Positions 1,521 through 62,679 of a stretch of DNA of 64,000 nt are shown piece by piece; the first letter of the stretch is position 1; each line of letters begins with the position of its first letter. This DNA comes from Chthoniobacteraceae bacterium. GTDB taxonomy: Bacteria > Verrucomicrobiota > Verrucomicrobiia > Chthoniobacterales > Chthoniobacteraceae. Position numbers and translations under genes: made by a program. Where the stretch lies: assembly GCA_044376515.1 (NCBI GenBank), contig JBILKV010000002.1:1209-65208 (forward strand). Reading direction: 5' to 3'. The notes under the pieces are model-generated. The model saw only the letters and a list, made by a program, of their open reading frames with translations, was not told the DNA's origin and did no database searches.

Positions 1521-2732
1521 ATGACTCCCCTTCTTGCCACCGTGATTGCTCGAATTCAGCGGGAGGGCCCCCTCACTTTCGCCGCGTTCATGGAAATCGC
1601 ATTGTACGATCCGGAGCACGGCTACTACGGTTCCGGGCGTGCGAAAATCGGTTCCGATGGCGATTTTCAGACGGCCGTCAGCGTCGGTCCCTTGTTTGGG
1701 GCCCTGCTGGCGCGGCAGTTCGTCCAAATGTGGGAACGGCAAGGCACCCCCTCGGAGTGGACGCTGGTGGAACAGGGTGCCTTCGACGGACAACTGGCTG
1801 CGGACGTGCTCAGCGGGCTTCAAACTTTTGCACCCGATTGCCTGAAGGCCACCACCCTGCGTCTGGTGGAGCCGCTGCCGAGGCTGCGGGAAAAGCAGTT
1901 GGAAACGCTGCGTTGCTTTGGCGACCGAGTGGCCTGGCATCCGGACATTGAATCCCTGCCCCAGTTCTGCGGGATCCATTACTCCAATGAGTTGTTGGAC
2001 GCATTTCCTGTCCACCGACTCCAGCGCAAGGACAAGGGCTGGCGGGAATGGCGTGTGGACACCGATGGCACGGCGCTGTTCTGGGTGGAAACCCAAATCG
2101 AGGATCCCGCCGTGCACAGAGCGGCGGAACGTTTCGGGCAGCGGGAGGTGGGCACGTTTGCGGAGGTCTGCACGGGATACACCCCCCACCTTCGCGCGGT
2201 GGGATCCAAACTCCAGAGCGGCTGGATGCTCGCCCTTGACTACGGAATGTCCGAAGCCGAACTCGCCCTTCCGATCAGGCGCGACGGCACCCTTTCCTCC
2301 TACCGGAAACAGAGGCGCGTCGCGGATCTCCTCGGCCGTCCCGGCGAGCAGGACCTGACCTCGCACGTTAATTTCTCAGCCCTGGCACTCGAGGCTCAGG
2401 CGCTTGGCTGGACGCTGGAGGGATACACCGAACAATACAGATTTTTCACCGGCCTGGCGCCGCTCCATTTTCGGGACGCCATCGCCCCTTTGACCGCGGA
2501 GGAGCAGCGGCGCCTGCTGTCTTTCCGGACACTCACGCACCCCCAGCTCATGGGCTTCCAGTTCAAGGCATTCTGCCTGCGACAACAGGTCGGAAGGGAG
2601 TCCTTCGACAACGGAGCCGCCGCGGTTGTCGGCGGACCGCTGCTTTCAGGTTTTGGACTGGCAAAAGACTCGGCTGGCATCCTTTTCGGCGAGAGGCCAA
2701 GTTTCACATCAATTCACGCAACGCCCGGCTGA
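1521..2732 (+). CDS. SAM-dependent methyltransferase, MidA/NDUFAF7 (DUF185) family
   Basis: ORF 1242..2732. The homology-like part starts at the internal ATG at 1521 (MTPLLATVIARIQREGPLTFAAFMEIALYDPEHGYYG...GDFQTAVSV). The 93 upstream codons are Arg-rich and look non-coding. Confidence 0.75.
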   Translation: MTPLLATVIARIQREGPLTFAAFMEIALYDPEHGYYGSGRAKIGSDGDFQTAVSVGPLFGALLARQFVQMWERQGTPSEWTLVEQGAFDGQLAADVLSGLQTFAPDCLKATTLRLVEPLPRLREKQLETLRCFGDRVAWHPDIESLPQFCGIHYSNELLDAFPVHRLQRKDKGWREWRVDTDGTALFWVETQIEDPAVHRAAERFGQREVGTFAEVCTGYTPHLRAVGSKLQSGWMLALDYGMSEAELALPIRRDGTLSSYRKQRRVADLLGRPGEQDLTSHVNFSALALEAQALGWTLEGYTEQYRFFTGLAPLHFRDAIAPLTAEEQRRLLSFRTLTHPQLMGFQFKAFCLRQQVGRESFDNGAAAVVGGPLLSGFGLAKDSAGILFGERPSFTSIHATPG

Positions 2733-2824
2733 TGGGAAAGTAAACCTCTGGCAGGCGTTTTCCTTAGTAAAAACAGGGATGTTCCGGATTGCTCTTCCAC
2801 AGCGGGTGCGGCTACGTTGCCAAC

Positions 2825-3793
2825 ATGTTCTCAAGATCTTCTTCCAGCCCCGTTTCCGTGGTCACCGGCGGGGCGGGCTTTCTTGGTTCTCACCTGACGG
2901 ATCGGCTTCTGACTGAGGGCCACCGGGTGATCGGTCTGGACAATTTCATCACCGGAAATCCTGAGAACATCGGGCACTTGGCGGGCAACCAGAACTACCG
3001 GTTTGTGCGGCAGGACGTGTCCAACTTTATCTTTCTCCCCGACGACGTCGATTTCGTCTTCCATCTGGCCTCTCCAGCGAGCCCGATTGACTACCTCGAG
3101 CACCCCATTCCGACCATGAAGGTGGGCGCCTTGGGGACGCACAACGCCCTGGGGCTCGCGAAGGCCAAGGACGCGACTTTTCTCCTCGCCTCCACCAGCG
3201 AGTCGTACGGGGACCCGCTCGTGCATCCCCAGAGGGAGGACTACTGGGGCAACGTCAACCCGATCGGACCCCGCGGCGTCTACGACGAAGCCAAGCGCTT
3301 TGCCGAGGCGCTCACCATGGCCTACCACCGCTTCCACGCGATGGACACCAAGATCATCCGCATCTTCAACACGTACGGCCCGAGGATGCGTCTCCGGGAC
3401 GGTCGCGTGGTGCCGGCCTTCATTGGTCAGGCGCTGACGGGGGAACCGCTCACGGTGTTCGGCGACGGTTCACAGACCCGCTCCTTTTGTTACGTCAGCG
3501 ATCTGGTCGACGGGATGTTCAGACTGGTGATGAGTGACTTTCACGATCCGGTGAACATCGGCAATCCGAGGGAGATGACCATCAAGGAATTCGGGGAGCA
3601 CATCATCCGGATTACCGGGACGCACTCGAGGCTGGAGTACCGCCCCCTTCCGGTTGACGATCCCAAGGTGAGGCAACCCGACATAGGGCGGGCCCGCAGT
3701 ATCCTCGGTTGGGAACCGAAGGTGGACTTTGAGGAAGGGATCCGTCACACTATCGAGTACTTTAGCAGCCGCGTTGGCCGACCGAATCCCTGA
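2825..3793 (+). CDS. uxs: UDP-glucuronate decarboxylase (UDP-xylose synthase), SDR family
   Basis: [10 protein letters not shown] Rossmann motif, catalytic YDEAKR (YxxxK), and [11 protein letters not shown] / [10 protein letters not shown] blocks typical of UXS. Start taken at ATG 2825; an alternative is 2789. Confidence 0.85.
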
Positions 3794-3856
3794 TCATCCT
3801 CCCTGTTCATCCCTGATCATAGGTACCAAACCCACTCCCTCACACCCCCAGGAACC

Positions 3857-4483
3857 ATGAAAGTAACGCCCCTTCTCGCTGGCCTTGCCTGTTTGGCGGC
3901 TTGCGTACTGGAAACTCAAGCAGCCAACCGCCCGGTCGACGGCGTTAAGATCAACTTCAACCTAATCGGATCGCCCGAGATCCTCGCGAATGTCAGGGGC
4001 ATGGCGGTGAAAAAGCCGCGCCCCATCATGGCAAACGAACCGGCCCCTGTCTGGTTGGAGGTGGAAACGGAATTTGACTCTTTTCAGGAGTTTCCGGAAC
4101 TTACCTTCAAATACTCCCTGATTCTTACAGGAAAGAACGGGGGGCCACCGAAGCTGTTGGAGGGTGAGGTGGTGCACGTGGATGTGGCACCCGGGCGGGA
4201 GCGGCACTCCGTGATGTACATCGCCCCCAAAACACTCAACCGTCTCTCCGACAACAAGATGTTTGCCATAAACAACATCTACGGCATTTACGTGGAAATC
4301 CTATCGGGGGGCCAGATCATTGCCTTCGGCCAGAAGTCCACGAAGGGTACCTACGAAAACTTCGTCAAAAGCAGGGACGCCCTCACGGACAAGATAACCG
4401 ACGCGTTCCTCACCAAAAGCCAGACCCCGTTTGCTCCCCTGTTCTTCGACTACCATGAGGCGGTCAAGCCTTCGGCACGCTAA
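3857..4483 (+). CDS. exported hypothetical protein, first gene of the PilM/secretin module (positional equivalent of Amuc_1102)
   Basis: 208-aa ORF with a signal peptide (MKVTPLLAGLACLAACVLETQAA). It ends 11 nt upstream of the PilM-like gene on the same strand. No recognisable catalytic motif. Confidence 0.55.
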   Translation: MKVTPLLAGLACLAACVLETQAANRPVDGVKINFNLIGSPEILANVRGMAVKKPRPIMANEPAPVWLEVETEFDSFQEFPELTFKYSLILTGKNGGPPKLLEGEVVHVDVAPGRERHSVMYIAPKTLNRLSDNKMFAINNIYGIYVEILSGGQIIAFGQKSTKGTYENFVKSRDALTDKITDAFLTKSQTPFAPLFFDYHEAVKPSAR

Positions 4484-4494
4484 GTAGAAGCCTC

Positions 4495-6390
4495 ATGTCC
4501 ACCCCGAAGCGGATTCTAACGCTCAGCTCTGGCTCCCAGACTGTTTCGCTGGCTGAGTTCAGGCCGGACGGCAGAGGGTCCATGCAGTTGCACGCCGTCG
4601 AGACACGGGAACTCATTCCGGATCCAGCGGCAGACGCAACCCGCGTGGCGCAATCTGCGCTCGCGTTGGGAGAGATGGTCGAGAGCTTGAAAGCGAAGGG
4701 ACTGCCCCTCCGCCTCACCCTGCCGGCGCAGTCGACCTTCAGCCGGATGGTCAAACTCCACGCAATGAGCGGGGCGGACCTCCAACAGACGATAATGTTC
4801 GAGGCCAAACAGAACATTCCGTATCCGCTCGAGGAGGTGGTCTGGGATCACCGGATCGTCTACGAAACCGAGGAGCACGAACCGGAGGTCCTCATCGCCG
4901 CCGCCAAGACGGACCTGTTGGAGGAATGGACTTCTGCCGTTGCCGGGTCGGGGTTGCAGCCAAACGGCATCGAACTGGCGACCATCGCCCTGTATAACGC
5001 GTTCCGCTTCAACTACGGGGAGCCCGAGGGGTGCACGCTTCTAATCGATCTTGGGGCGCGCACAACCAACTTACTTTTTATCGAGCCGGGCAAGTTTTTC
5101 ATCCGCACCATATCCTCTGGAGGCGGCAGCCTGACCGCCGCCGTATCCAAAGAGTTCGCGGAACCCTTTACGATGGCCGAGGCAAGGAAGCGGTCCACCG
5201 GGTTTATCGGGCAGGGCTCCAACTTCGCCGAACCGGACGACCCGGTTCAGGCGCGTTTGGCGAAAGTGCTGCGGAATGCAGCGACCCGACTCCATGCAGA
5301 GGTCACGCGGTCCATTTCCTTCTACCGTTCACAGCAGGCTGGAGCCGCACCACAGCGGGTGCTGTTGTGCGGCAACAGTGCGCAGACTCCGCTCATGCTG
5401 GAGTTCTGGGAGGAAAAGCTGGGAATTCCCGTGGAGCGTTTCAACCCGTTGCGCTGCGTGAGCGCCGCGAGGCACCTCCACGGCGGGCCCCTCGCGGAGT
5501 CCGCCGCCCACCTGGGCGAACACGTCGGTCTGGCGCTTCAGTCGATGCTTCACTGCCCCGTCTCGGTCAACCTGTTGCCGCCGGCGCTGCGCAGAAAATC
5601 AAGGGTTGGCCAGATCGCTCTTGTCATCGCACTTTCGGCCGCCTGCATCGCAGCGCCGTTGTTGGCGTGGGGATTCCACCTGCGCCATGATTCGGAGTGG
5701 ACTGCAAAGCAAGCGGAGGATCTCAAGCCCAAGATCTTGCGGGTCAACGGGATGGCCGGCCAACTCAAGAAGCTGCAGGAACAAATTGACGAGGTGGTGC
5801 GCCTCACCAAACCACTGGAGCAGGCAGTGTCGGAACGCGGTTATTGGCTGACTCTCCTCAATCAAATCCACGCTTGTCTGCCGGAAGAGTTGGTCTGGAT
5901 TACAAGTTTCGAACTCGAATCGCCCAAGAAAGCTGAATCGGAAGACCCAACTCCGCCGGCGAAGACTTCGGTTCCGGTGGCGGGAGCGGGAGGGAAGTCC
6001 TCGGCGCCCAAACAACCCGCGGCGCGCCTGATGTTGAAGGGCTTTTACATGGAAAATCCGAAGGGAGCCGAAGTGGTGGATGCATTCGGAAAGTCGCTAA
6101 AGTCCCAGAGCGACCTGATCTCCGAGTATTGGGCGGCGCAGGACCGATACAAGGCGCTGGGGTCAGCGCCCACCAGAGAAGCCCGGGAGAAGGCGGCGGA
6201 CGAACTCAAGCAGGCTACGGAAAACCTCAAGAAGGCCGGCCTCCACGATCACCCAGTCGCGTACGCCTTGGCACCGGTGGAGGAGTGGATCAAGACCAAC
6301 AAACCGAATCCCACGGAGTGGGTTCAGGATTTTGCGATTCCTCTGGAACTGGCCGCGCCTCCGGCCAAAGACGCCGTTTTGACGCCATGA
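4495..6390 (+). CDS. pilM: type IV pilus assembly protein PilM (actin-like ATPase fold) fused to a PilN-like transmembrane/coiled-coil region
   Basis: 631 aa. The N-terminal ~360 aa have PilM/FtsA-like blocks (LTLPAQSTFSRMVKL, FEAKQNIPYPLEEVVWD, LLIDLGARTTNL). One TM follows (IALVIALSAACIAAPLLAWGF), then a coiled-coil and a charged tail. Confidence 0.8.
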   Translation: MSTPKRILTLSSGSQTVSLAEFRPDGRGSMQLHAVETRELIPDPAADATRVAQSALALGEMVESLKAKGLPLRLTLPAQSTFSRMVKLHAMSGADLQQTIMFEAKQNIPYPLEEVVWDHRIVYETEEHEPEVLIAAAKTDLLEEWTSAVAGSGLQPNGIELATIALYNAFRFNYGEPEGCTLLIDLGARTTNLLFIEPGKFFIRTISSGGGSLTAAVSKEFAEPFTMAEARKRSTGFIGQGSNFAEPDDPVQARLAKVLRNAATRLHAEVTRSISFYRSQQAGAAPQRVLLCGNSAQTPLMLEFWEEKLGIPVERFNPLRCVSAARHLHGGPLAESAAHLGEHVGLALQSMLHCPVSVNLLPPALRRKSRVGQIALVIALSAACIAAPLLAWGFHLRHDSEWTAKQAEDLKPKILRVNGMAGQLKKLQEQIDEVVRLTKPLEQAVSERGYWLTLLNQIHACLPEELVWITSFELESPKKAESEDPTPPAKTSVPVAGAGGKSSAPKQPAARLMLKGFYMENPKGAEVVDAFGKSLKSQSDLISEYWAAQDRYKALGSAPTREAREKAADELKQATENLKKAGLHDHPVAYALAPVEEWIKTNKPNPTEWVQDFAIPLELAAPPAKDAVLTP

Positions 6391-7403
6391 ATCTCTTCTC
6401 TAAAGAGTACCGCGCGATTCTTGGGGCCTCCCTCTTCGCCCTGCTCGTTGTGGGCGGGAGCGCGGCGTTCGCTTGGACCGCCCTTCAAGAGCGCAATGGT
6501 GCCGTTGAGGAATTGCAAAAGCGCAGCAAGGACTTCGACCGACTGCGGTCGGTGACTCCAGCGCCGACGGAGGAGAGCCGCAAGCAACTTGAACAGCAGG
6601 AAAAGGAAACCAGGGCCAGCGCCAACAGGCTCTTCGCGGCCCTGACTGCCATGAACATCCCGCTTGAGAAAATTCAACCACAGGATTTCCAGACGGCTCT
6701 GAACGGCAAGACCCAGAGCTTCGCCGCCCGGGCCGCCAAAAGCAGGGTAACTATCCCGCGCGGTGTGCGGGAATCCGAACCTTTCTCGATGGACTTCGAC
6801 GAGTTCATCAAAAAGGTTCCCTCCGAAGAGCGGGCGCCAGCGGTCAACCGTCAGTTGTTCGCCGCCGACCGCCTTTTGAACACACTGCTCGACAGCAAAC
6901 CCATAGCGCTTATTGGCTTCAAAATTGAGCGGAAAGAGGAACCCAAAGACCCGGTGAAGGAAGCTAAGGAGGCGAAGGTGGAGGCCAAGTCAGGAAAGCC
7001 CGCTCAGGCGCAACCGCCCGTACGCGTCCTTGGGGCTCTCGGCTTCGAACTAAAATTCACAGCGACTCCTGACAGTCTCCGAGACTTTTTAAACGCAGTG
7101 ACCAAGGACAAAAAAGCGTTCTTTGTAGTGCGGCGCCTGAAGGTCACGACGCTCTCCAGAGAGGGAGTGCCAATGTTGGCGCCCAGCAAAGCCATCGCGG
7201 CGGCCCCTGCCGATCCATCGGCTGCGGGCCAGCCGCAGGCAGCCACAGTTGCGCAGTACATTCTTGGTGACGAACATGTTGAAGTGGAAATGCGCGTGGA
7301 CCTTATGACTTCGCTGCTCGCGGACGCTCCGCTTCCGGACAAGGCGGGCGGCTCTGCGGGGGACAAGACCGGGAAGCCTGCCTCCAAGGAGGGTGCCAAA
7401 TAG
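6387..7403 (+). CDS. bitopic PilO-like / Amuc_1100-family pilus-like protein
   Basis: Start ATG 6387 overlaps the pilM stop (ATGA). N-terminal TM (ILGASLFALLVVGGSAAFAW), a coiled coil, then GFELKFTATPDSLRDFLNAV...FFVVRRLKV. From memory this resembles the Amuc_1100 C-terminal half. The 6129..6386 extension in the ORF track overlaps pilM and was rejected. Confidence 0.6.
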   Translation: MNLFSKEYRAILGASLFALLVVGGSAAFAWTALQERNGAVEELQKRSKDFDRLRSVTPAPTEESRKQLEQQEKETRASANRLFAALTAMNIPLEKIQPQDFQTALNGKTQSFAARAAKSRVTIPRGVRESEPFSMDFDEFIKKVPSEERAPAVNRQLFAADRLLNTLLDSKPIALIGFKIERKEEPKDPVKEAKEAKVEAKSGKPAQAQPPVRVLGALGFELKFTATPDSLRDFLNAVTKDKKAFFVVRRLKVTTLSREGVPMLAPSKAIAAAPADPSAAGQPQAATVAQYILGDEHVEVEMRVDLMTSLLADAPLPDKAGGSAGDKTGKPASKEGAK

Positions 7404-7405
7404 CC

Positions 7406-8791
7406 ATGAGCTTTTTGAAAAACAATACCCACTGGCTTGTGCTCTCCGCGATGGCGGCATCCTCCGTCGCCGGAACCTGCCTGCTCCTGAAGGACCAGAT
7501 GGAACTGCCGGAACGCCACGCCAAACTCCGTCCGCAGGAGATTAGATCGGGTAAACTGCCTGCCCCGGACCTGTCTGCCAATCGAAAGGCGCTGGCCTAT
7601 CTGGATTCCCCGGGCCAGTGGGAAATCACCTACCCGACGGACCTATTTGTCTCCGAACCTTACCTGTTGGAGAACGACGGACCACGGCGTCCCAAGGAGG
7701 GAAGCCTCCACAGGCACAGCACGTTGGAACAGCCCATCCCCAACCAGTGGTTTCTTGACAACAAGCTTCCGCTTCGGACTCCAAACGTGTCGACGGATGA
7801 CACGGATGGCGACGGATTTACCAATGAAGACGAGTGGTGGTGGGGGACCGACCCGAACGAACCTGCACAGTACCCTCCTCTGGTAACCCGGCTCAATTTT
7901 CTGCCCCAAAAGCCCGCGCCCAACCGAATCGAGTTTGTCTCGTACGAGGGCAACCCTGAGAAGCCTGACACCGAACCTCTTCTGAGAATCAACCTGATCT
8001 GGCTCGACGCTCCCGATTTTCGCGTGGGCTGCACGGAGGCCGTACTCGTGGATCCTTCCAAACCCACTCAGCAGGCCTCCTACAAGTTTCGGTTGCGCAG
8101 GGACGACATTCCCGAAAGCGCACCCGTCGATGTGAAACCCTCGGACCTTATCCCGGGAACCAGCCTTAAGCTTATTAGTTGGACCCCCGGCATCGACGGA
8201 AAACCGACGGCAGTGGTTTTGAAAAATCTGGATGGTGACAAAAATCAGACCATTTCCGCGGGCATCGGAGGCCCATCAGTGCAGTTGGCTAGAGACCAGC
8301 GGCAAAAAAAATTCCGTCTCAGGGTGGGCGAGTTGATCCCCGGCACACAGATCAAACTACTGCGGTTCGAACCGCGGCGGGAAAAGATTGAGGGCGTGAA
8401 TGCCACAAAGGACAAATCGGTCATCTACCTCAGGGAAGAAAAAAGTGACTCCGCCCGGGAGCTTCCCGCCGTTTACAATGGCGACCGCGGCGAAAACGTG
8501 GCGAACTTTGCAGATCAGAAAATCATCTTCAAACAGGAGCCTCCCCAGCCTCGAGAGGCTTTCGTGTTGAAGCTAGCCGATCCCATCCAACTGGGTGACG
8601 GCAGTACCCTGAAGATCGAATCTCTTGGGGCTGACAGCGCGGTGCTTGTAATGTCCAGCGGTCCGAACAGTGGCAAAAAATGGCTGGTATCGGAGACACG
8701 CAGCCGCTTGCTGGACGCCGATGGCAGAGAACTCAACTCGCGGCCTGAGCCGCCGCACTGGACTCCCGCGCCCCCCCCCCCCGCGAAATGA
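7406..8791 (+). CDS. bitopic pilus-system protein with a TSP3-like Ca-binding motif and three PilP-like repeats (positional equivalent of Amuc_1099)
   Basis: 461 aa. N-terminal TM (WLVLSAMAASSVAGTCLLL), DDTDGDGFTNEDEWWWGTDPNEP motif, and three repeats of type FRLRxxELIPGTxxKLxxxxP. Starts 2 nt after the previous gene; its stop overlaps the secretin start. Confidence 0.55.
   Translation: MSFLKNNTHWLVLSAMAASSVAGTCLLLKDQMELPERHAKLRPQEIRSGKLPAPDLSANRKALAYLDSPGQWEITYPTDLFVSEPYLLENDGPRRPKEGSLHRHSTLEQPIPNQWFLDNKLPLRTPNVSTDDTDGDGFTNEDEWWWGTDPNEPAQYPPLVTRLNFLPQKPAPNRIEFVSYEGNPEKPDTEPLLRINLIWLDAPDFRVGCTEAVLVDPSKPTQQASYKFRLRRDDIPESAPVDVKPSDLIPGTSLKLISWTPGIDGKPTAVVLKNLDGDKNQTISAGIGGPSVQLARDQRQKKFRLRVGELIPGTQIKLLRFEPRREKIEGVNATKDKSVIYLREEKSDSARELPAVYNGDRGENVANFADQKIIFKQEPPQPREAFVLKLADPIQLGDGSTLKIESLGADSAVLVMSSGPNSGKKWLVSETRSRLLDADGRELNSRPEPPHWTPAPPPPAK
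8771..8782 (+). repeat. C12 homopolymer tract (encodes PPPP) 6 nt before the stop of 7406..8791 and 5 nt before the secretin ATG
   Basis: Read directly: gcg cccccccccccc gcg aaATGa. It is the longest mononucleotide run I noticed in the window. Confidence 0.9.
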
Positions 8792-11511
8792 ATTCCATCC
8801 GACGATTTACCCCCACAACTGTAATGCATGCGGCCAGCTTGGGGGCGTTTGGGGCGTGCACTTTGGGAGCGCTCCAGCTGAACCTGATGGCAGCCAAATC
8901 ACCGCCGCCGCCGAGGGCCGCCGAGGTTGCATCCGCCGACGTGACCGAGATGATGGAGATGAGCCGCAAGGAAGTGCAGCGGCGCGAGAATGGGCGCCTC
9001 AAAGCCGTGGAACAGCTCGAACTCGCACACGCGAAGATGGCGATCAAGGATTATAAGCCGGCAATCAAGCATTACCTTGAGGCGCTCAAAAATCTGCCGG
9101 AATCGCGGAATAACTGGAAGGAACGTGCCGCTGCGATGTCGGGCTTTCGTGACGCTTCCTTGGAGTTGGCCAAAGTCCGCGCAAGTGAGGGACGGTATTT
9201 TCACAAGGAAGGGCAACAACTCGAGAGCGCGGAGGATGTGCTGAATGCGCTGCTCGAAAAGGATCCGGATAACAGGACGGCTAGGCGGCAGCTTGAGAGG
9301 CTTTACGATCCGACCATTACCAACCGGATGTATACGCCGACGCACCGGGCCGAACTTGAGGATGTGAAACGGCTTCTCAACGAGGCGCAAGGATTCTACG
9401 ACATCGGCAAGTTTGACCTGGCCATCAAGCGGGCGGACCAAGTTCTGGACATCGACCCCTACAACAGTGCGGCGCGCAAAATCCAGCAACTGTCCGACGA
9501 CGCAATCACCCGTTACGGGGAGAACGCCTATGACGAAGCGCGGGCTCGAGCAATCCGAAACGTGCAAAAGGCCTGGGCAAGCCCGGTTAAGCGTTATGGC
9601 ACTGTCTCCACCAGCACCACCGCCCCCCAGCAGATGGAGGAAACCGGTGTGGAGCGGTTGCGTAAGAAAGTGGCGACCCTTGTGATACCAGAGGTGGAGT
9701 TCCGCGACTCCACCCTTACCGAAGTCGCCGCGATCCTGACGGAGGCGTCTAAAAACGCCGACCGTAGCAACGATCCACAGAAGGGCGTGACGATTCTGGT
9801 GAACATTCCAAACCTGCCCAAAGGAGGTGGGTCCGCACCCGCCGCCCCGGGCGGAAGCGTCCTCGATCTGTCGCCGCCCACGGGCGGCGGGGCGGGAGGG
9901 ATGAGCGCCATGCCGACAGTGACGCTCCCGAAGATTCCAAACTTCACCCTTGCCCGCATTTTGGACTACGTGACCGAGCAATCGGGGACAACCAAATGGA
10001 CGGTCAAGAAAGACTCCATCGAAATCGTGCCGAAGACGGCCCAAACCGACACGCTCATTCTGAGGACTTGGACGGTATCGCCTTTTATTTTCAGCAGCTC
10101 GGCCCCCAAGGTGGATGCAGAGCTCAGCTCCACCGGACTGGGCGGACTCGGACTCGGAGGCGCCACCGGCGGAGCCGCCCCAAAACCAAACAACTCCCGC
10201 CGGATCGACGCCAAAGAATTCCTCAGCGGCCAGAATGTGAGTTTCGCGGCGCCCAACTCCACGGCCACGTACAATCCCCGCACGAAATCGCTCACTGTAT
10301 TCAACACGGCGGAAATGCTGGAACTCGTCGACCAACTGGTGGCGGACGGGGCCGACAGCAGTCCCGTTCAGGTGGATATTCAGGCCCGTTTTGTCGAGTT
10401 TACCCAGCAGAACCTCAAGGAACTTTCCTTTGACTGGCTCATGGGCCAATCCAACGTGCCGGGAGGCGAGAGAATCTTCACCGGAGGAGGAACCACGGGT
10501 TCCCAACGGCCATCGCTCAATTCCTCGGACTTCCCCTTCACGATCCCCTCGGGCGGCGCTTTTCCAAATGGCGGAAACCCGGTGGGCGTCTTTCCGGTCA
10601 CAGGCGGAAACCGCTCCGGCAAACTCGCTCTGAGTTCGAGTGCCATCGACGCTTTGCTCGCGGGAGCCACGGGTGGCGGAGGACTCGCCGGCCCGGCGGC
10701 ATTCTCGGTCGCGGGGGCGTTTACGGACCCTCAGTTTCAGATGGTAATTCGTGCCATGAACCAGTCCAAGGCGATCGACCTGCTCTCGAGTCCGAGCATC
10801 GTGGCGCGCAATCAGGAAGAAGCCAACATCGACATCGTCCGGGAGTTCATGTACCCCACGGCCTTCACCCCGCCCCAGATTGGGGGGGCCGCAGGCGGGG
10901 CAGGTGCTGCTGCCGGTGGCGGCGCGGTTGGGAACGCTGCAGCGCCCGCCGCGAGCATACCGGTCACTCCGACGACCCCGTCGGACTTCCTCAAGCGCGA
11001 CACAGGAGTGAAGCTCAAGGTAAACCCAACCATTCAGCCGGACCGCTATTCTGTTGACCTTGACCTCCGCCCAGAAGTCATAGAGTTTGAAGGATTTATT
11101 AATTACGGGAGCCCGATCCAAACCGTTGCCACCCAGAGCGCCATCACCACGGCCGTCGGCGGAATCGCCTCCACCCCAAAAGCAGTCACCCTCACCGACA
11201 ACGTCATCAACCAGCCCATCTTTGCCGTGCGTCGCATTCAGACCAACGTGACCCTGCTCGACGGGGAAACCATCGCCCTTGGAGGTCTCATCCGGGAGGA
11301 TGTCCAAAAGGTGGACGACAAAGTCCCCATCCTCGGTGACATTCCGGGTTTGGGGCGCCTCTTCCGATCCAAGGTGGACCAGCATATCAAGAAGAACCTC
11401 ACCATCTTTGTGACCGCCCGCATCATCGACGCCGCCGGGCAGCCCATCAAAATCAACAAGGCCGAACAGGAGCCTCCTGAGGAGGTTCCGGCGCTCACCG
11501 CTCCACGCTAG
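8788..11511 (+). CDS. pilQ: secretin (PilQ/GspD family outer-membrane channel) with N-terminal TPR region
   Basis: 907 aa with a signal-like N-terminus. TPR-like helices (AIKHYLEALKNLPE, GFYDIGKFDLAIKRADQVLDIDPYNSAARK). Secretin C-domain blocks: LLSSPSIVARNQEEANI, VTLLDGETIALGGLIRED, VPILGDIPGLGRLFR, LTIFVTARIID. Confidence 0.85.
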   Translation: MNSIRRFTPTTVMHAASLGAFGACTLGALQLNLMAAKSPPPPRAAEVASADVTEMMEMSRKEVQRRENGRLKAVEQLELAHAKMAIKDYKPAIKHYLEALKNLPESRNNWKERAAAMSGFRDASLELAKVRASEGRYFHKEGQQLESAEDVLNALLEKDPDNRTARRQLERLYDPTITNRMYTPTHRAELEDVKRLLNEAQGFYDIGKFDLAIKRADQVLDIDPYNSAARKIQQLSDDAITRYGENAYDEARARAIRNVQKAWASPVKRYGTVSTSTTAPQQMEETGVERLRKKVATLVIPEVEFRDSTLTEVAAILTEASKNADRSNDPQKGVTILVNIPNLPKGGGSAPAAPGGSVLDLSPPTGGGAGGMSAMPTVTLPKIPNFTLARILDYVTEQSGTTKWTVKKDSIEIVPKTAQTDTLILRTWTVSPFIFSSSAPKVDAELSSTGLGGLGLGGATGGAAPKPNNSRRIDAKEFLSGQNVSFAAPNSTATYNPRTKSLTVFNTAEMLELVDQLVADGADSSPVQVDIQARFVEFTQQNLKELSFDWLMGQSNVPGGERIFTGGGTTGSQRPSLNSSDFPFTIPSGGAFPNGGNPVGVFPVTGGNRSGKLALSSSAIDALLAGATGGGGLAGPAAFSVAGAFTDPQFQMVIRAMNQSKAIDLLSSPSIVARNQEEANIDIVREFMYPTAFTPPQIGGAAGGAGAAAGGGAVGNAAAPAASIPVTPTTPSDFLKRDTGVKLKVNPTIQPDRYSVDLDLRPEVIEFEGFINYGSPIQTVATQSAITTAVGGIASTPKAVTLTDNVINQPIFAVRRIQTNVTLLDGETIALGGLIREDVQKVDDKVPILGDIPGLGRLFRSKVDQHIKKNLTIFVTARIIDAAGQPIKINKAEQEPPEEVPALTAPR

Positions 11512-11518
11512 GCGCGCC

Positions 11519-12124
11519 ATGCCTGTTCTAGGCATCACGGGGGGAGCGGCCTGCGGGAAATCCGCCTTCGTCTCCGAACTGCTCGCGCTTCTGCCCGGTG
11601 CGGAGGCCTTCAGTGCGGACGTAGCGGTCGGGGAGCTGGCCGAAAATGACCCAGCGGTGCGCGAAGAACTCACAAGCCTCTTCGGACCCGGATGCCTGAC
11701 CCCTGAGGGGCACTACAACCGCCCCTGGGTCCGCGAACGCGCCTTTTCCGACCCGGCGCTCCGCTCCGGCCTGAACGCGATTTTCCACCCACGGGTGCGC
11801 CAACTTTGGAGTGCAGTCGCCGAAAAAGCCCGGCACTCTTCCCACTGGCTCTTGGCAGAAATTCCGCTTCTTTACGAAACGGGCGGGGAAGCCCTGTGCG
11901 ACCGGGTCGCCACCGTGGCCTGTTCCGCTACGCTCCAGTGGCACCGCCTCACGGCGGGCCGCGGCTTGGATCAAAAAACTGCGTCGCAAATCAGGGTTGC
12001 CCAAAGCAGTCTGGAGGAGAAGAGTAACAAAGCCGATTATCTCATCTGGAATGACTTCCCCTTCCCCTGCCTCCAACGACAGGCCGGACTCTGCGCCGCC
12101 TGCCTCCTCCGCTTCAGCACCTAG
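11519..12124 (+). CDS. coaE: dephospho-CoA kinase
   Basis: 201 aa. P-loop LGITGGAACGKS at the N-terminus, IFHPRV and EIPLLYETG blocks typical of CoaE. Confidence 0.8.
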   Translation: MPVLGITGGAACGKSAFVSELLALLPGAEAFSADVAVGELAENDPAVREELTSLFGPGCLTPEGHYNRPWVRERAFSDPALRSGLNAIFHPRVRQLWSAVAEKARHSSHWLLAEIPLLYETGGEALCDRVATVACSATLQWHRLTAGRGLDQKTASQIRVAQSSLEEKSNKADYLIWNDFPFPCLQRQAGLCAACLLRFST

Positions 12125-12221
12125 CCATACCGCCGAAGACGGCTCCCCCGCCTCCGTGGGCGGAAACAACACCTCCGGTACTGCGCCTGCGGTACAGTCC
12201 CCGGAACCTCCCCCCTCCAAG

Positions 12222-13475
12222 ATGGATGTGGACGAGCTTCACGAACTGACCAGCCAGGAACTCGCCACCCACGCCCAAAGGCTGGGCATCCGTTTCCATG
12301 CGGACAAGTCAAGGCACCATCTTGTTTTTGAGATCTGTCGGTTTTGCGTGGAACACGGGACGTTGCTGACCGCAACCGCGATCGTCGATGTGAATGCGCA
12401 GGGCGCCGCTTTTCTGCGCTGGCCGAGGTACAACTTCCGTCCCCTCCCTCAGGACATTCAAGTTCCGCACAACCTCGAACGCCAACTGCGGCTGAAGCCG
12501 GGGCTCCGGGTTTCAGCCCGGCTGCGGGCGCCAAGGGACAGAGACCGCTTTCTCGCAGTAGATGAAGTACTTGAGGTGGAGGGAATTCCCGCGGCCGACT
12601 GGCGCGAACCAAAGGACTTCGAGCGGCTCACCGCGATGCATCCCGTTGAGCGCATAGTGCTGGAACATCCCGGAACCCGCTCGATCACCCCGCGTGCCGT
12701 GGATCTGATCGCGCCGCTTGGCAGGGGCCAGCGCGGGCTGGTCGTGGCCCCTCCTCGGACGGGCAAGACCATCCTCCTCAAGGAGATCGCGCATGCCATC
12801 CGGACCACTTCTCCCGAGACGGCCCTCATCCTCTTGCTCGTGGACGAGCGCCCTGAAGAAGTCACCGATTTCAAGCGCTCCCTCGACTGCGAAATCTATT
12901 CCTCCACCTTCGACGAACCCGCCCTCCGCCATACGCAGGTGGCCGACATGGTGTTGGAGCGCGCCAAACGCCTCGTCGAACTCGGAAGGCACGTCGTCAT
13001 CCTCTTGGATTCCATTACCCGTCTGGCGCGGGGCTACAACAACCTGCAGCCCGGCAAGGGACGAATCATGTCCGGCGGCGTCGACGCCAAGGCACTAGTC
13101 AAACCCAAGAAGTTCTTCGGTGCGGCAAGAAACACGGAGGAGGGCGGAAGCCTCACGATTCTGGCCACGGCCCTGGTCGAGACCCAGAGCCGTATGGACG
13201 ACCTGATCTTTGAGGAGTTCAAAGGCACGGGAAACATGGAGCTCCGACTGGACCGGGCGCTTTCGGATAAGCGCATCTTTCCCGCAATCAACATTCCCCA
13301 GTCGGGAACGCGGCGTGATGAGCTGCTCTACCACCCCAAAGAGTTTGAACGCCTGAGCCTCCTGCGGCGCCAACTCGCGGCGCTTCCCGCTCAGGAAGCC
13401 ACGGAAATCCTGAATCAAAACCTGCGCAACTTTGGTTCCAACGCCGAACTTTTAATACGTGGCATCCGCGCATGA
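12222..13475 (+). CDS. rho: transcription termination factor Rho
   Basis: Rho N-terminal helix bundle ([18 protein letters not shown]), cold-shock-like RNA-binding domain (GAAFLRWP), Walker [13 protein letters not shown], and [40 protein letters not shown]. In-frame alternative starts are GTG 12156 and ATG 12051 (the latter overlaps coaE). Confidence 0.9.
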
Positions 13476-14794
13476 ACGACGGAGCGCCCCGAGACGAGCG
13501 GTTGAAAAAAGGTTGGTTGTCGACTTTCTTTGGGCGCCTGTTTGGAAAAACGGAAGCACCGGCGCCACCCTCGGGACGCCTCACAGACCACCAAAAATCC
13601 AGCAATCCCAGGAGACGTCCGCCCCGTAAGCCAGACGGCCAGAGATCCCTACCCCAAGAGCCTCGACACGCCGGGCGTTCGCACGCGCTACACGCGGCGC
13701 CTAGGCGGTCAGTGACGCTTACCCCCTTCCGCATGATTTCAAGCACCCCTGAACTCGAAGAAGCCGTCTCGGCGTTCGCGGACCATCCACGCATCGCCCT
13801 CGACACGGAGGCAGACAGTCTGCACTGCTACTTTGACAAGCTCTGCCTTCTTCAAATTTCAATCCCCGGCTCCAACCTGCTGATTGACCCCCTTGCGGAC
13901 ATTTCACTGGCCCCCCTTTTTCAAGCACTTGAGGGGAAGACGATTGTCATCCACAGCGCCGACTATGACCTGCGCCTTCTGCGCCGGGTGGGATACGCGG
14001 GTCCAACCGTGCTCTTTGACACCATGATCGGCGCCCGCCTCTGTGGCGCTACCGAATTTGGTTTGGCCTCCCTGCTGCACCAGCACTTTGGAGTCACCCT
14101 CGCAAAGGCATCCCAAAAGGCCAACTGGGCGCGCCGGCCCCTGCCCGCGGAGATGCTCGAATATGCCGTCAACGACACTGTCAACCTCCTGACCCTCGCC
14201 CAGATTCAGGAGAACCGCCTACGCGAGCTCGGCCGATGGGAGTGGTTCGAGCAAATGTGCGAAAAACAGATCCGCTCCTCCGCCTTCACTCGGGAGCGCG
14301 ATCCGGACACCCTCTGGCGCATCTCCGGCTACGCCGAGCTGAGCCCCCGTGGAGCGGCGGTGCTGCGGTCGCTCTGGTCTTGGCGCGACCAAGAGGCCCA
14401 ATCCGTCGACAAGCCCGCCTTCCACATCCTCGCCAACGACCTGCTTCTGGACTTCTGCCACCGTTTCGACCGGGGGCAACCGGTGGAACCCCGACACCTG
14501 CGCGGCAACCGGTGGAACCGCCTCCGGGAGATGGCAGAAGCAGCCCTCCAACTGCCGGAAAGCGAATGGCCCACTCCGATTCGAAAGCCCCGTTTACGCA
14601 CCACCCACGAGCAAGAGTCGCGTTTCAAGCAACTGCGCGACAAGCGCGATGCCGCGGCTGAACTTCTCGAACTAGACCCGACGCTGATCGCGCCAAAGGG
14701 AATCCTCGAGCAACTTTCCCGCCGCGAACCGCAGGCCTTTGAAGCGCTCCTTCCTTGGCAGCGCGAATGCCTCGGCCTGGGGCCGCTCCCCTAA
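13472..14794 (+). CDS. rnd: ribonuclease D (DEDD 3'-5' exonuclease + HRDC)
   Basis: DEDD exonuclease blocks: IALDTEADSL, LLQIS, VIHSADYDLRLL, YAVNDTVNLL. ATG 13472 overlaps the rho stop (ATGA). The domain-supported core begins at ATG 13733, so the first 87 basic/Pro-rich codons are uncertain. Confidence 0.75.
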   Translation: MNDGAPRDERLKKGWLSTFFGRLFGKTEAPAPPSGRLTDHQKSSNPRRRPPRKPDGQRSLPQEPRHAGRSHALHAAPRRSVTLTPFRMISSTPELEEAVSAFADHPRIALDTEADSLHCYFDKLCLLQISIPGSNLLIDPLADISLAPLFQALEGKTIVIHSADYDLRLLRRVGYAGPTVLFDTMIGARLCGATEFGLASLLHQHFGVTLAKASQKANWARRPLPAEMLEYAVNDTVNLLTLAQIQENRLRELGRWEWFEQMCEKQIRSSAFTRERDPDTLWRISGYAELSPRGAAVLRSLWSWRDQEAQSVDKPAFHILANDLLLDFCHRFDRGQPVEPRHLRGNRWNRLREMAEAALQLPESEWPTPIRKPRLRTTHEQESRFKQLRDKRDAAAELLELDPTLIAPKGILEQLSRREPQAFEALLPWQRECLGLGPLP

Positions 14795-14812
14795 GGACCG
14801 TCGCCGAGCGTT

Positions 14813-15607
14813 TCACTGCACCGCCAGCAGATCCCCGATGCACGCGTGCACGTCGGGCGCGCGCATGAGGGTCTCGCCCACCAGAATCGCGTTGCAACCG
14901 GAGTCAAAGGCGCGCTGGCAGTCCGCCCGGGTCTTGATGCCGCTTTCACACACGAGGATCACGCCCTCGGGCACCTCCTCGCTGAGACGCTCGGTGGTGG
15001 CCAGATCCACCGCAAAAGTCGTCAGATTGCGGTTGTTGATACCGATCAGGCGGGCACCAAGGTCGAGGGCCCTGTCAAGCTCCTCAGCGTCGTGCACTTC
15101 CACAAGAACATCGAGTTGGAGGCGCAGCGCCTCCTCGTAAAGCGCCTCGAGTCGCTCCTGCCCAAGCGCAGCCACGATCAAAAGCACCGCGTCTGCGCCC
15201 GCCACGGAAGCCTCCGCGATCTGCACCTCGTGAATGATGAAGTCCTTCCGCAGCAAAGGCAGCGCCACCTCAGACCGAATCCGGCTCAGGTAGGAGAGGT
15301 TTCCCTGAAAGAACTCCCGGTCTGTCAACACCGAGAGGGCATGCGCACCCGCCGACTCGTAGGCGCGCGCAATGGCCACCGGATCAAATGCCTCGGCAAT
15401 GACTCCGACCGAGGGACTGGCTTTTTTGACCTCGGCAATCAGTCCCAAGGCCTCAGGCCCCCGGTCCAGGGCGGAGGCGAACGGCCGAAAGTCGTTGCGT
15501 TCCAGCGCGGCCGCGCGCAGATGGGCCGCACGGGGCAGGATCCGAGCGACTTCCTGCTCCTTGACCGCGAGGATTTGTTGGAGACGGTTTGCAGCCATGG
15601 TCCCCAT
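14813..15607 (-). CDS. trpC: indole-3-glycerol-phosphate synthase
   Basis: 264 aa. LIAEVKKASPSVG, LSVLTDREFFQG, LLRKDFI, IGINNRNL and ESGI blocks of TrpC. Confidence 0.85.
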   Translation of the reverse strand: MGTMAANRLQQILAVKEQEVARILPRAAHLRAAALERNDFRPFASALDRGPEALGLIAEVKKASPSVGVIAEAFDPVAIARAYESAGAHALSVLTDREFFQGNLSYLSRIRSEVALPLLRKDFIIHEVQIAEASVAGADAVLLIVAALGQERLEALYEEALRLQLDVLVEVHDAEELDRALDLGARLIGINNRNLTTFAVDLATTERLSEEVPEGVILVCESGIKTRADCQRAFDSGCNAILVGETLMRAPDVHACIGDLLAVQ

Positions 15608-17680: not shown

Positions 17681-18412
17681 CTAGTGAATTCCCATGTGCA
17701 CTGTGAGCCTACGCTGCTCTTCGTAGGTCGGGTGAAACCCTTCCATCGGCCGTTTGTCCGCGTATCCGCTCACCCTGACGATCTGTTCGGGCTTGAGATC
17801 GTAGTTCAAAAGGCGCCGCCGCGAGGCCGCCGCCCGCTCCGCGCTCAGTTCCCACGCTCCGCGTTCCAGACGCAGGAAATCTGCCGCCGTCGGGCCGAAG
17901 GCCCGGGAAGTATGACCATCCAAAAGGAGCAGCATCTCATGACGGCCCGCAACAAACGCGAGGTTCTTCAGCACGAAATCGCCCCACTCCGTGACTTCGG
18001 TCGAATCCACCTTGAAAAACGGCTTTTTCTGCCGGTCAAACAACGTGACCTTGATCGTTTCGTTAACCAACTTGACGTCCACCGCGCGATCCTTGTCGGT
18101 CTGGTCAATCTTGAGCAACTTGATGAGCTCATCCGCGATGAACTGGAGGTCCTTGAGTTTCCTCGACCCGCCGGCCTCCCCGACTTTGTCCATGTTCTTC
18201 TCCCCGGGGGTTTTCTGCTCTCCACCTTGGGCGGAGGGCTCATTGTCATCCGGAGGCGCAGTGTCGATTTCATCCTCGTAGACGATCTTGTTGTCGTTGG
18301 GATCTGGCGCAATAATCCACATGACGATGAAAAGCGCCATCATTGCGGTCACAAAATCCGCGTAGGCGACCTTCCACGCCCCCCCGTGATGTCCGTCTTT
18401 TTTCTTCGCCAT
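17681..18412 (-). CDS. motB: flagellar stator protein MotB paralog (distal copy, no recognisable plug helix)
   Basis: 243 aa. N-terminus GGAWKVAYADFVTAMMALFIVMWI with the conserved channel Asp. Acidic linker. OmpA-like C-domain (LLLDGHTS...WELSAERAAASRRRLL). Confidence 0.75.
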   Translation of the reverse strand: MAKKKDGHHGGAWKVAYADFVTAMMALFIVMWIIAPDPNDNKIVYEDEIDTAPPDDNEPSAQGGEQKTPGEKNMDKVGEAGGSRKLKDLQFIADELIKLLKIDQTDKDRAVDVKLVNETIKVTLFDRQKKPFFKVDSTEVTEWGDFVLKNLAFVAGRHEMLLLLDGHTSRAFGPTAADFLRLERGAWELSAERAAASRRRLLNYDLKPEQIVRVSGYADKRPMEGFHPTYEEQRRLTVHMGIH

Positions 18413-18437
18413 GGGTCAATGAGTCAAACCGAGCGCC

Positions 18438-18818
18438 CTAATAGGTGCAGTCCAATTCGATCCTCCGGGAACAGGAGCAGGTCACGATCACCTTCTCTAT
18501 CCGGCCATTGTTGGTGACCAGTTCGACAGTGGGTTCGGTCAGGTCATGCTCATGCCCAGCACCGCGCGCATGAGCTTCCAAGCCCGTCGCGGCCTCTTTC
18601 TGCCGACTGGCCCGGCTCACCTCCTCGGCGTCCAGCACGCTGCCCGCCTCCAGAAGAGCCGATTTCAAAGATTGAAAACCACCCGTTTGCGGCAGGGCGG
18701 ACATAAAACTTTCCGCGCCGTCCAGCGGATCACGGAAAGCCATGCCCTCCGAAGGATCCAGGGATTCCAGATGCTCTGAAGCGGGCATTTTGGGCCGGTT
18801 GGCGAGGTAGCTGTCCAT
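18438..18818 (-). CDS. hypothetical protein between the two motB paralogs
   Basis: 126-aa ORF with coding-like GC-rich third positions. It starts 5 nt after the upstream motB stop and ends 25 nt before the downstream motB start. Acidic N-half; Cys-containing tail VTCSCSRRIELDCTY. No motif I recognise. Confidence 0.6.
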   Translation of the reverse strand: MDSYLANRPKMPASEHLESLDPSEGMAFRDPLDGAESFMSALPQTGGFQSLKSALLEAGSVLDAEEVSRASRQKEAATGLEAHARGAGHEHDLTEPTVELVTNNGRIEKVIVTCSCSRRIELDCTY

Positions 18819-18823
18819 AGTGT

Positions 18824-19531: not shown

Positions 19532-19577
19532 GGCTCCGCCTCAACTCTGCGAACAAACTGGGAGTGCCCCCACGGCC

Positions 19578-54512: not shown

Positions 54513-54671
54513 TAGAATAGGGTGGACTGACGGCCAGCAACAAAACCCAAGTTTTGCGCTTGTCAAATTTACCCTCACTTACCCTCTTCCAATGAACTAC
54601 TTACAAATATTTTTTGCTTTTGGAACGCACTAAAATACGGCGCAAGGCTCCCCCCCCGCGATATCGACCTC

Positions 54672-61371: not shown

Positions 61372-61551
61372 GTTTGAGGCGACAAGCATGCTAAAGGTTC
61401 CGCTCAAAAGGCGACTTGTTTTCGCGTGGCGTGCCCTGCCCACCCCCCGTTTTGAAAACGCTCCATCCGGCCGTTTGGCGCGGGCGTGCGTCCGGCCACG
61501 CTTTCCCGCGCTTGACTCCGAAGCGCATCCGCCTTCCCCTTCCTTTCACCT

Positions 61552-62466: not shown

Positions 62467-62679
62467 CTAAACGCAAAGTCAAACAGGCGCGGGCGAAACA
62501 AGAGCCGCCTGGAAGACGGACCCCTCAGCCCCACGCATCCGGGCAGTCGGTTGACATTCAGAGACGACCGCGGAAATTTGCGTGCACCGGCAGGGCCAAA
62601 CCGCCTCGAGTCCAACCCGCAGCTCCACGCCTCCGCGTGAACCGCGGTTTCCGGTTTCAATCGTGAAAAGCCGGGGGCG

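Follow-up and report, generated by a model that had tools for sequence, protein, structure and literature searches.

A freshwater Chthoniobacterales copy of the Amuc_1102-to-1098 (MUL2) gene cluster

The five-gene locus analyzed here is ordinary and widely conserved: it is the known Amuc_1102-to-1098 (MUL2) cluster of Akkermansia muciniphila as carried by a freshwater relative. With a probability of roughly 60%, we consider this Chthoniobacterales ortholog of MUL2 to be the half of a type IV filament-class machine that spans the envelope and contains no motor, with the partners of this half encoded elsewhere in the genome. The homologies, topology and synteny of the five proteins, and a prepilin gene farther along their contig, were observed directly; from these we infer that the parts of the module function together with partners encoded elsewhere. 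The machine may serve the capture and acquisition of a polymer (glycan or glycoprotein) at the cell surface, a role ascribed to MUL2 of A. muciniphila by secondary sources, which also propose it for Akkermansiaceae from aquatic habitats; the literature behind it deals with A. muciniphila and marine members of that family.

In such a machine, P2 would contribute PilN and, fused to it, a cytoplasmic PilM domain, P3 (Amuc_1100 family) a PilO-like partner, P4 a family-specific bitopic periplasmic beta protein in place of PilP or GspC, and P5 the TPR-bearing outer-membrane secretin, while P1 would be an accessory beta protein exported by the Sec route. Such a system would be split, with its motor, platform, prepilin peptidase and substrates (pilins or pseudopilins) encoded at other places in the genome.

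The locus and its conservation

The window, that is, the whole 64-kb stretch of DNA that was analyzed, contains the five genes as a packed, co-directional run with spacings of 11, –4, 2 and –4 nt, just where the earlier note had placed them (Table 1). The start of P3 is an ATG inside a longer TTG ORF beginning at 6129, while that of P5 is ambiguous, with 8788 and 8824 both used in public gene calls. The tight same-strand run extends past the five genes to CoaE (after a 7-nt gap), Rho and RNase D. By Pfam, the module is flanked by housekeeping genes, and a flagellar cluster at about 17.7–45 kb of the window agrees with the description of the genome as flagellated. A promoter and terminator scan of positions 2700–15000 gave nothing exceeding shuffled expectation, and the sole find of the Rfam and tRNA scans was a tRNA-Arg at 62679–62753.

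Table 1. Genes of the module and their conserved neighbors in the window
Feature	Coordinates	Strand	Assignment
P1, 208 aa	3857..4483	+	ORF, Amuc_1102 family
P2, 631 aa	4495..6390	+	ORF, Amuc_1101 family
P3, 338 aa	6387..7403	+	ORF, Amuc_1100 family
P4, 461 aa	7406..8791	+	ORF, Amuc_1099 family
P5, 907 aa	8788..11511	+	ORF, Amuc_1098-family secretin
NAD-dependent sugar-nucleotide epimerase/dehydratase, conserved upstream neighbor	2789..3793	+	Pfam Epimerase, GDP_Man_Dehyd; context only
CoaE, Rho, RNase D, conserved downstream neighbors	11519..14794	+	Pfam CoaE, Rho_RNA_bind, DNA_pol_A_exo1/HRDC; context only

For each protein, the best NCBIfam match was the corresponding family, Amuc_1102, 1101, 1100, 1099 and 1098 for P1 to P5, and the homology and gene order claimed from the letters alone hold for 5/5 families. 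P1 and P4 scored above the NCBIfam cutoffs; P2, P3 and P5 were below the equivalog cutoffs, with matches nearly full length (E 1e-37 to 1e-211).

Among the 80 best Chthoniobacterales loci, nearly all share the order epimerase, P1–P5, CoaE, Rho, RNase D, the counts being taken over related loci that extend far enough to show the neighbors. The epimerase is upstream of P1 in most of these 80 loci (73–93% identity), and CoaE, Rho and RNase D are 3' of the secretin in most related loci reaching that far. For Akkermansiaceae, the MUL2 neighbors named in the legend of Fig. 2B (PMC13174399) include a secretion-system channel protein, dephospho-CoA kinase and Rho. The same source reports the synteny to be conserved beyond Akkermansia in a 2026 survey across Verrucomicrobiota. 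The literature uses the names type IV pili cluster and MUL2 and links the cluster to mucin acquisition; a preprint has it define MUL2 and describes it as important for mucin acquisition (bioRxiv 10.64898/2025.12.30.696933). With the cluster already named and its synteny in Verrucomicrobiota published (PMC13174399), the novelty implied by the earlier note falls away, and the locus reveals no new kind of system.

Amuc_1100 and Amuc_1098 are among the Akkermansia proteins most studied for host effects, and the cluster's job in the bacterium is only inferred. A free-living, flagellated member of Chthoniobacterales with the five genes in the same housekeeping block, together with P2 relatives in at least 597 species-level genomes, supports a view of the cluster as core envelope machinery that Verrucomicrobiota have inherited vertically since ancient times, and not as an adaptation to the gut host. 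It also suggests that Amuc_1100 has its host-signaling properties only incidentally, beside its native role. In practical terms the locus is of modest value: it is a comparative data point, and it gives a sharper form to the question about the motor and pilins that belong with the module.

The five proteins and the likeness to type II secretion

The predicted topology followed the earlier description, with a signal peptide in P1 and one TM segment each in P2, P3 and P4. P2 is indeed a PilM fused to a PilN, consisting of a cytoplasmic actin-like PilM domain (1–355), a TM segment at about 373–393, a long coiled coil and a PilN-like periplasmic domain. It matched NCBIfam Amuc_1101_fam at 508 bits (below the equivalog cutoff of 650) and Pfam PilM_2 at E=1e-25, and its family profile matched both PilM (3JC8_M, E=1.4e-53) and PilN (3JC8_N, E=3.2e-8) of M. 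xanthus. The AF2 model (pLDDT 80.9) has a helix at 363–460, and its best Foldseek matches were PilM structures with TM 0.82–0.85. We found more than 2,055 homologs of P2, and most of the 120 listed are 560–660 aa long; the Amuc_1101-family protein has been named MUL2B in the literature.

P3 is bitopic, with an N-terminal TM segment at 13–33, and its suspected kinship with Amuc_1100 was confirmed. Its best NCBIfam match was Amuc_1100_fam (130 bits, cutoff 180; E=1.2e-37), and a protein identical to it has a precomputed match to Pfam PF28028 (Amuc_1100). A PDB search with the single sequence gave no match, and it took the family profile to reach the Amuc_1100 structures 6KNY, 6LAD and 6LAF, nearly full length at E=3e-32. 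The literature describes Amuc_1100 as PilO/PilN/GspM-like and reports a PilO/PilN/T2SS-like fold; P3 itself gave no direct PilO match and only a weak N-terminal match to GspM (E=5e-4, 19.7 bits vs. a 60-bit cutoff).

P4 is bitopic as well, with an N-terminal TM segment, a TSP3-type Ca-binding loop (DTDGDGFTNEDE; Pfam TSP3_bac, E=8e-5) and an all-beta C-terminal part. It passed the cutoff of NCBIfam Amuc_1099_fam (92.9 bits, cutoff 50) over residues 14–188 only. A clade-specific insertion of about 110 aa, seen in the alignment with relatives of 311–343 aa, makes it longer than the 321-aa family profile. The earlier note had called this gene PilP-like, for which we found no support. The P4 profile had no match in the PDB at E≤10, and a Foldseek search of the PDB with the AF2 model (pLDDT 77.5) returned noise only (best E 0.012, TM below 0.1; none at E<0.001). 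As neither search gave any relative, an identity as PilP or GspC was dropped.

P1 is a beta-rich protein with a predicted Sec-type signal peptide. It passed NCBIfam Amuc_1102_rel (59 bits, cutoff 55), its family profile matched PDB 7DSZ (Amuc_1102) at E=7.9e-21, and a protein identical to it has a precomputed match to Pfam PF28178 (Amuc_1102); the literature names the Amuc_1102-family protein MUL2A. The homologs listed from 73 related loci have mostly A-x-A type Sec signal peptides, and neither a conserved lipobox nor a G/FTLIE leader was seen among them. The window protein contains "LAAC", but a lipoprotein was rejected because the cysteine is not conserved in the homologs, and a canonical type IV pilin was rejected because P1 has neither a prepilin leader nor a hydrophobic N-terminal helix. 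No PilP-type beta-sandwich lipoprotein was thus found in the module, P4 having no PDB relative and the P1 homologs no conserved lipobox.

P5 proved to be the secretin with N-terminal TPR repeats that had been proposed. It matched Pfam Secretin at E=2e-32 and NCBIfam Amuc_1098_fam at 702.7 bits over residues 46–888 (below the cutoff of 750), and TPR_14, TPR_2 and Fis1_TPR_C matches fall at residues 75–242, N-terminal to the Secretin domain, in agreement with the N-terminal TPR (BamD-like) region described for Amuc_1098 (PMC4960237). There was no Pfam match to PilQ-type AMIN domains. In the PDB, GspD and PilQ matched equally well, the best being a GspD; against the NCBIfam models, both GspD (143 bits, cutoff 351) and PilQ (102 bits) stayed below cutoff.

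Part of this evidence would also fit a machine of the type II secretion kind, in which P2 corresponds to GspL, P3 to GspM, P4 to GspC and P5 to GspD and a short pseudopilus expels folded exoenzymes, for example glycoside hydrolases, sulfatases and proteases, from the periplasm. The mucin defect in Akkermansia would then result from failed enzyme export and not from a pilus. The fused PilM–PilN architecture equals the layout of GspL, P3 shows the weak GspM match, and the secretin scores higher with GspD than with PilQ and has a GspD as its best PDB match. However, all top Foldseek and HMM matches of the P2 cytoplasmic domain were PilM and none GspL, and the scores with all T2SS models were far under their cutoffs. 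Neither a GspC HR nor a PDZ domain was found in P4 (Pfam, Foldseek and PDB profile), searches of Pfam, NCBIfam and PDB profiles gave no match to GspL or GspC among the module proteins, and in no locus were gspE–K genes nearby. We regard a T2SS-like exporter as unlikely.

Partner genes and further readings

The module and its adjoining genes lack pilin, ATPase and platform genes, as the earlier note had remarked, and the same is true of nearly all of the 80 related loci. No prepilin motif was present in the six frames of the 64-kb window, and no T2SSE or T2SSF domain among its larger ORFs scanned with Pfam, the few ORFs outside the scan including 39283–40866, presumably FliF. The window plus about 14 kb yielded no PilB/GspE assembly ATPase, no PilC/GspF platform and no prepilin peptidase. 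A classic prepilin (MKRTILPRPQSRRLG/FTLIELLVV..., Pfam N_methyl) begins 70 nt past the end of the window, on the same 351-kb contig and about 52.5 kb downstream of the module. At this distance of about 52 kb, it could serve another system. The gene after it encodes an exported protein of 927 aa that has a zinc-protease motif (HExxH), which counts toward a T2SS-like role.

Among the relatives, one MAG has a PilT-like T2SSE ATPase on the module's contig at a distance of 1.15 Mb, and in one locus (L055) such an ATPase is directly upstream of P1. A motif scan of the flanks of related loci gave three prepilin genes and one ATPase in 1.28 Mb, with no conserved linkage and, within these flanks taken by themselves, no sign of enrichment. 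The PilC of A. muciniphila is reported to be Amuc_1584, away from the cluster (PMC12619756). The term "stand-alone" in the earlier note thus describes the locus correctly but is overstated for the system, given the same-contig prepilin, the PilT-like ATPases in relatives and Amuc_1584.

The same parts could also be arranged as the core of a Verrucomicrobiota-specific trans-envelope device for polymer import, a "selfish" uptake of glycans or glycoproteins into the periplasm, which we find quite unlikely. A PilT-like retraction-type ATPase and unlinked pilins would drive the TPR-secretin and the scaffold of PilMN, Amuc_1100 and Amuc_1099, with the Sec-exported, Amuc_1102-like P1 as the substrate-binding element. 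The process would be analogous to DNA uptake through PilQ, and the device would neither build an adhesive pilus nor secrete proteins.

Highly doubtful is a pilin-independent machine in which P1 itself is the fibre subunit or the cargo of the secretin and pilin, ATPase and platform are unneeded. The module invariably begins with P1, and pilin or ATPase neighbors are almost never seen, both of which would fit. The assembly of type IV filaments, however, depends on a hydrophobic N-terminal helix, and P1 and the inspected homologs have ordinary Sec signal peptides with neither such a helix nor a prepilin leader. Without a cytoplasmic motor to pair with, moreover, a conserved cytoplasmic PilM domain would be hard to explain, and prepilin and PilT-like genes do occur in these genomes. 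This truly stand-alone reading was the one favored by the earlier note.

That the secretin and scaffold export an exopolymer, as GspD/PilQ-family secretins are reported to do in cyanobacteria and myxobacteria (PMC12475490), is hardly credible: besides that precedent, it could draw on the sugar-nucleotide epimerase/dehydratase upstream of P1 in most related loci, but this adjacency proves little because the epimerase belongs to a long syntenic housekeeping block (Dus, methyltransferase, CoaE, Rho, RNase D), and glycosyltransferase, Wzx/Wzy and Wza genes are absent beside the module in the window.

Comparison with known systems

Of the systems compared, type II secretion resembles the module in the layout of P2, where a TM segment joins an actin-like cytoplasmic domain to a periplasmic one as in GspL, in the GspM-like P3, in a third bitopic protein encoded before the secretin and in the GspD-like secretin itself. 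It differs in that the cytoplasmic domain of P2 is PilM-type and not GspL-type, no score reaches its family cutoff, HR and PDZ domains are missing from P4 and no gspE–K genes are nearby.

The PilMNOP alignment subcomplex and PilQ secretin of the type IVa pilus (M. xanthus, P. aeruginosa and T. thermophilus) include PilM and PilN, which are homologous to P2 in sequence and fold, and both systems have a secretin last in the gene order, with the bitopic P3 as the putatively PilO-like partner in the module. Unlike in the type IVa pilus, PilM and PilN are fused here, an extra Sec-exported protein (P1) is encoded first, no PilP-like lipoprotein was detected, the TPR repeats of the secretin replace the AMIN domains, and pilA, pilB, pilC, pilD and pilT are unlinked to the module.

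From the cluster of A. muciniphila, which joins the MUL2 locus and the PilQ secretin in a non-motile gut mucin specialist, the present one differs in its host, a flagellated freshwater member of Chthoniobacterales, in that three of the five proteins are under the NCBIfam equivalog cutoffs and in the length of P4 (461 aa vs. the 321-aa profile). As described in PMC4960237 and PMC13174399, the Akkermansia cluster, too, is without pilin, ATPase and platform genes and has CoaE and Rho downstream. The two clusters have the same five families in the same order, a PilM–TM–PilN fusion and a TPR secretin.

The five-gene module and its families

All five ORFs that the earlier note had placed in the module were present on the forward strand (see the table; P1–P5 denote the proteins in gene order), with spacings of 11, –4, 2, and –4 nt. 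By hydropathy, P1 begins with a signal peptide, and P2, P3, and P4 each carry a single transmembrane segment (residues ~373–393, 13–33, and 10–29, respectively). The co-directional packed run extends beyond P5, with the CoaE start 7 nt past the secretin and Rho and RNase D next. Public gene calls on identical DNA differ in the secretin start, using either the overlapping ATG at 8788 or a position 12 codons on, at 8824; the later start turns the –4 overlap with P4 into a 32-nt gap and gives a protein beginning MHAASLGAFGAC..., a possible lipobox. The antisense ORF opposite the secretin gene we take to be a GC-rich shadow ORF and not a gene.

Module genes and other features of the window and of related loci (L055, L073, and L081, related loci; L086, the DNA of the window end continued on the public contig; L coordinates are local to each locus)
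Feature	Location	Strand	Length	Top NCBIfam match (bits; family cutoff)	Remarks
P1	3857-4483	+	208 aa	Amuc_1102_rel (59; 55)	
P2	4495-6390	+	631 aa	Amuc_1101_fam (508; 650)	Also TIGR01175 pilM, 121 bits
P3	6387-7403	+	338 aa	Amuc_1100_fam (130; 180)	ATG start within longer TTG ORF
P4	7406-8791	+	461 aa	Amuc_1099_fam (92.9; 50)	Match covers residues 14-188 only
P5 (secretin)	8788-11511	+	907 aa	Amuc_1098_fam (702.7; 750)	
ORF opposite secretin	8899-11673	-	924 aa		
MotB paralogs and intervening ORF	17681-20435	-			
ORFs within flagellar cluster	33150-35782	-	661 aa, 216 aa		No Pfam match
PA14 protein	48603-54578	-	1991 aa		
ORF near TGT	60106-61443	-	445 aa		No Pfam match
Prepilin	L086:12519-13154 (window-equivalent 64070-64705)		211 aa		Leader RRLG/FTLIELLVV; N_methyl
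PilT-like T2SSE ATPase, unknown protein (~250-270 aa), TPR protein	L055:5279-9249	-			
PilT-like T2SSE ATPase, unknown protein (~250-270 aa), TPR protein	L081:10001-14233				
Extra TPR protein and secretin	L073:16308-18882		Secretin 500 aa		

We scored the proteins against NCBIfam with the family cutoffs and against Pfam. The top NCBIfam match was in each case the corresponding Akkermansia family, and the proposed homology to Amuc_1102–1098 is thus correct, five for five. The Pfam domains detected among the module proteins were PilM_2, Secretin, TPR repeats, and a TSP3 repeat; the newer families PF28178 (Amuc_1102) and PF28028 (Amuc_1100) appear in the precomputed annotation of identical proteins. 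For P1 and P3, homologs from related loci served to build profiles, with which the PDB was searched. The P3 profile matched the Amuc_1100 structures 6KNY, 6LAD, and 6LAF over almost the full length (E = 3e-32), the aligned region containing the blocks that the earlier note had named as shared with Amuc_1100 (GFELK..., FxVxxxRIxN), and the P1 profile matched the Amuc_1102 structure 7DSZ (E = 7.9e-21).

Component proteins and the machine they may form

Our preferred reading, to which we assign a probability of roughly 0.6, is that the module supplies the scaffold and channel, one half of a split machine of the type IV filament class, which would serve the capture and acquisition of polymers at the surface. 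The suggestion that gene 2 joins PilM to a PilN-like part was borne out by profile, model, and fold comparison alike. The P2 family profile matched M. xanthus PilM at positions 1–350 (E = 1.4e-53) and, separately, PilN at positions 356–481 (E = 3.2e-8); the AF2 model (pLDDT 80.9) consists of an actin-like domain, a ~100-residue helix (363–460), and a small alpha/beta domain; and every top Foldseek match was a PilM, the TM score, normalised to the target, reaching 0.85. These results make P2 a genuine PilM–PilN fusion, and, with the best 120 homologs listed being mostly 560–660 aa, fusion is the norm of the family. For the P5 secretin, structures of GspD and of PilQ were matches of similar quality. 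The GspL-like fusion in P2 and a lean of the secretin scores toward GspD would fit a T2SS-like exporter of degradative enzymes, but the P2 homology is PilM-type and the scores are sub-cutoff, and we regard such an exporter as unlikely.

Amuc_1102 has been compared with an archaeal pilin fold. The P1 homologs that we inspected from 73 related loci had mostly ordinary A-x-A Sec signal peptides, with no conserved lipobox or prepilin leader among them, and a role for P1 as a canonical type IV pilin was rejected on these grounds. That the machine works independently of pilins, with P1 as its fibre or cargo, is rather improbable, as P1 has a Sec signal and is devoid of a pilin helix.

P4 is the least understood of the module proteins. 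Its relatives are mostly 311–343 aa, and in the clade to which the window belongs (identity 58% or more) nearly all are 461 aa, with a clade-specific insertion of ~110 aa (residues about 195–305) that looks like a tandem duplication of an "IPGT..KL" beta module. The AF2 model (pLDDT 77.5) is all-beta beyond residue 163. Because neither a Foldseek search with the model nor the family profile gave a PDB relative, the label "PilP-like" for gene 4 is unsupported.

Conservation and neighborhood

Upstream of the module lie Dus, a methyltransferase, and a sugar-nucleotide epimerase, and downstream CoaE, Rho, RNase D, TrpC, PyrH, and Frr. A polysaccharide exporter, for which the adjacent epimerase is the sole argument, is highly improbable. 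Beyond Frr, the window contains a large flagellar cluster (MotAB, a sigma factor, FlhF, FlhA, FlhB, FliR, FliP, FliO, FliM, FliL, FlgE, FlgD, FliJ, FliI, and FliG). At its edge, two MotB paralogs adjoin one MotA, and between the paralogs is a 126-aa ORF that lacks any Pfam match. For the larger of two ORFs inside the cluster, a hook-length or FliK-like identity is possible. The 1991-aa protein combines four copies of PA14 with Big_9, cadherin-like, GLEYA, and F5/8 type C domains and looks like a giant carbohydrate-binding adhesin.

Scanning one genome per GTDB species, we found at least 597 loci encoding a P2 relative. The best 80 of these are by title mostly Chthoniobacterales, Chthoniobacteraceae, or Chthoniobacter MAGs, the remainder being Verrucomicrobiota, Verrucomicrobiae, Spartobacteria, one Terrimicrobiaceae, and two "Akkermansia muciniphila"; many of the MAG names suggest a freshwater lake origin, and the closest loci have 89 and 78% identity. 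The order epimerase-P1-P2-P3-P4-P5-CoaE-Rho-RNaseD is kept in nearly all of the 80, and the Fig. 2B legend on synteny of MUL2, the current name of the Akkermansia cluster, in Akkermansiaceae includes dephospho-CoA kinase and Rho, with a secretion-system channel protein, among the neighbors (PMC13174399), which together argue that the block is old and vertically inherited. The two loci titled "Akkermansia muciniphila" (P2 identity to the window 78 and 50%) share the module and the upstream Dus-methyltransferase-epimerase synteny with the window as far as their contigs reach, and their species label is probably wrong. One related locus has an extra pair of TPR protein and secretin genes directly after the module's TPR-secretin; the pair resembles the fused architecture divided over two genes.

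Possible motor and filament partners, and comparison with Akkermansia

The earlier note had called the module stand-alone. At the locus, this holds consistently: no prepilin motif was found in any frame of the window, no T2SSE or T2SSF protein among its larger ORFs scanned with Pfam, and in the 1.28 Mb of related loci no more than three true prepilin genes and a single T2SSE ATPase. At the genome level, the evidence points the other way. A prepilin gene with the classic leader MKRTILPRPQSRRLG/FTLIELLVV starts 70 nt past the window end on the same 351-kb contig, ENA ERZ28008831:k141_1254099, and the genome therefore encodes type IV pilin-like substrates. The gene after it encodes an exported protein of 927 aa that carries HEVGH, a zinc-protease motif. 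Among relatives, a conserved three-gene unit with a PilT-like ATPase lies directly upstream of P1 and divergent to the module in L055, and in another MAG the unit recurs on the 1.78-Mb contig that carries the module, at a distance of 1.15 Mb. The conserved cytoplasmic PilM domain, by inference, likewise argues for a cytoplasmic motor partner. For A. muciniphila, PilC is reported to be Amuc_1584 (PMC12619756), and several proteins resembling pilins (Amuc_1523-24, Amuc_1583, and others) are described as encoded away from the cluster. The module is likely part of a split system, with motor and filament parts encoded elsewhere in the genome.

Amuc_1098–1102 was described as a pili-like cluster (PMC5332112), and Amuc_1100, which has a pair of alpha-beta-beta motifs similar to type IV pilus and T2SS proteins, as PilO/PilN-like. 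MUL2 reportedly has an important part in acquiring mucin (bioRxiv 10.64898/2025.12.30.696933). A 2026 ISME J survey describes its synteny across Akkermansiaceae and other Verrucomicrobiales, with MUL2 "less conserved" among Chthoniobacterales and missing from Methylacidiphilales (PMC13174399). For the motor partner, filament partner, and channel cargo, the present locus is no more tractable than Akkermansia. It is an ortholog of an already named, profiled, and recently surveyed cluster, and the strong conservation of MUL2 in many Chthoniobacterales loci extends that survey modestly.
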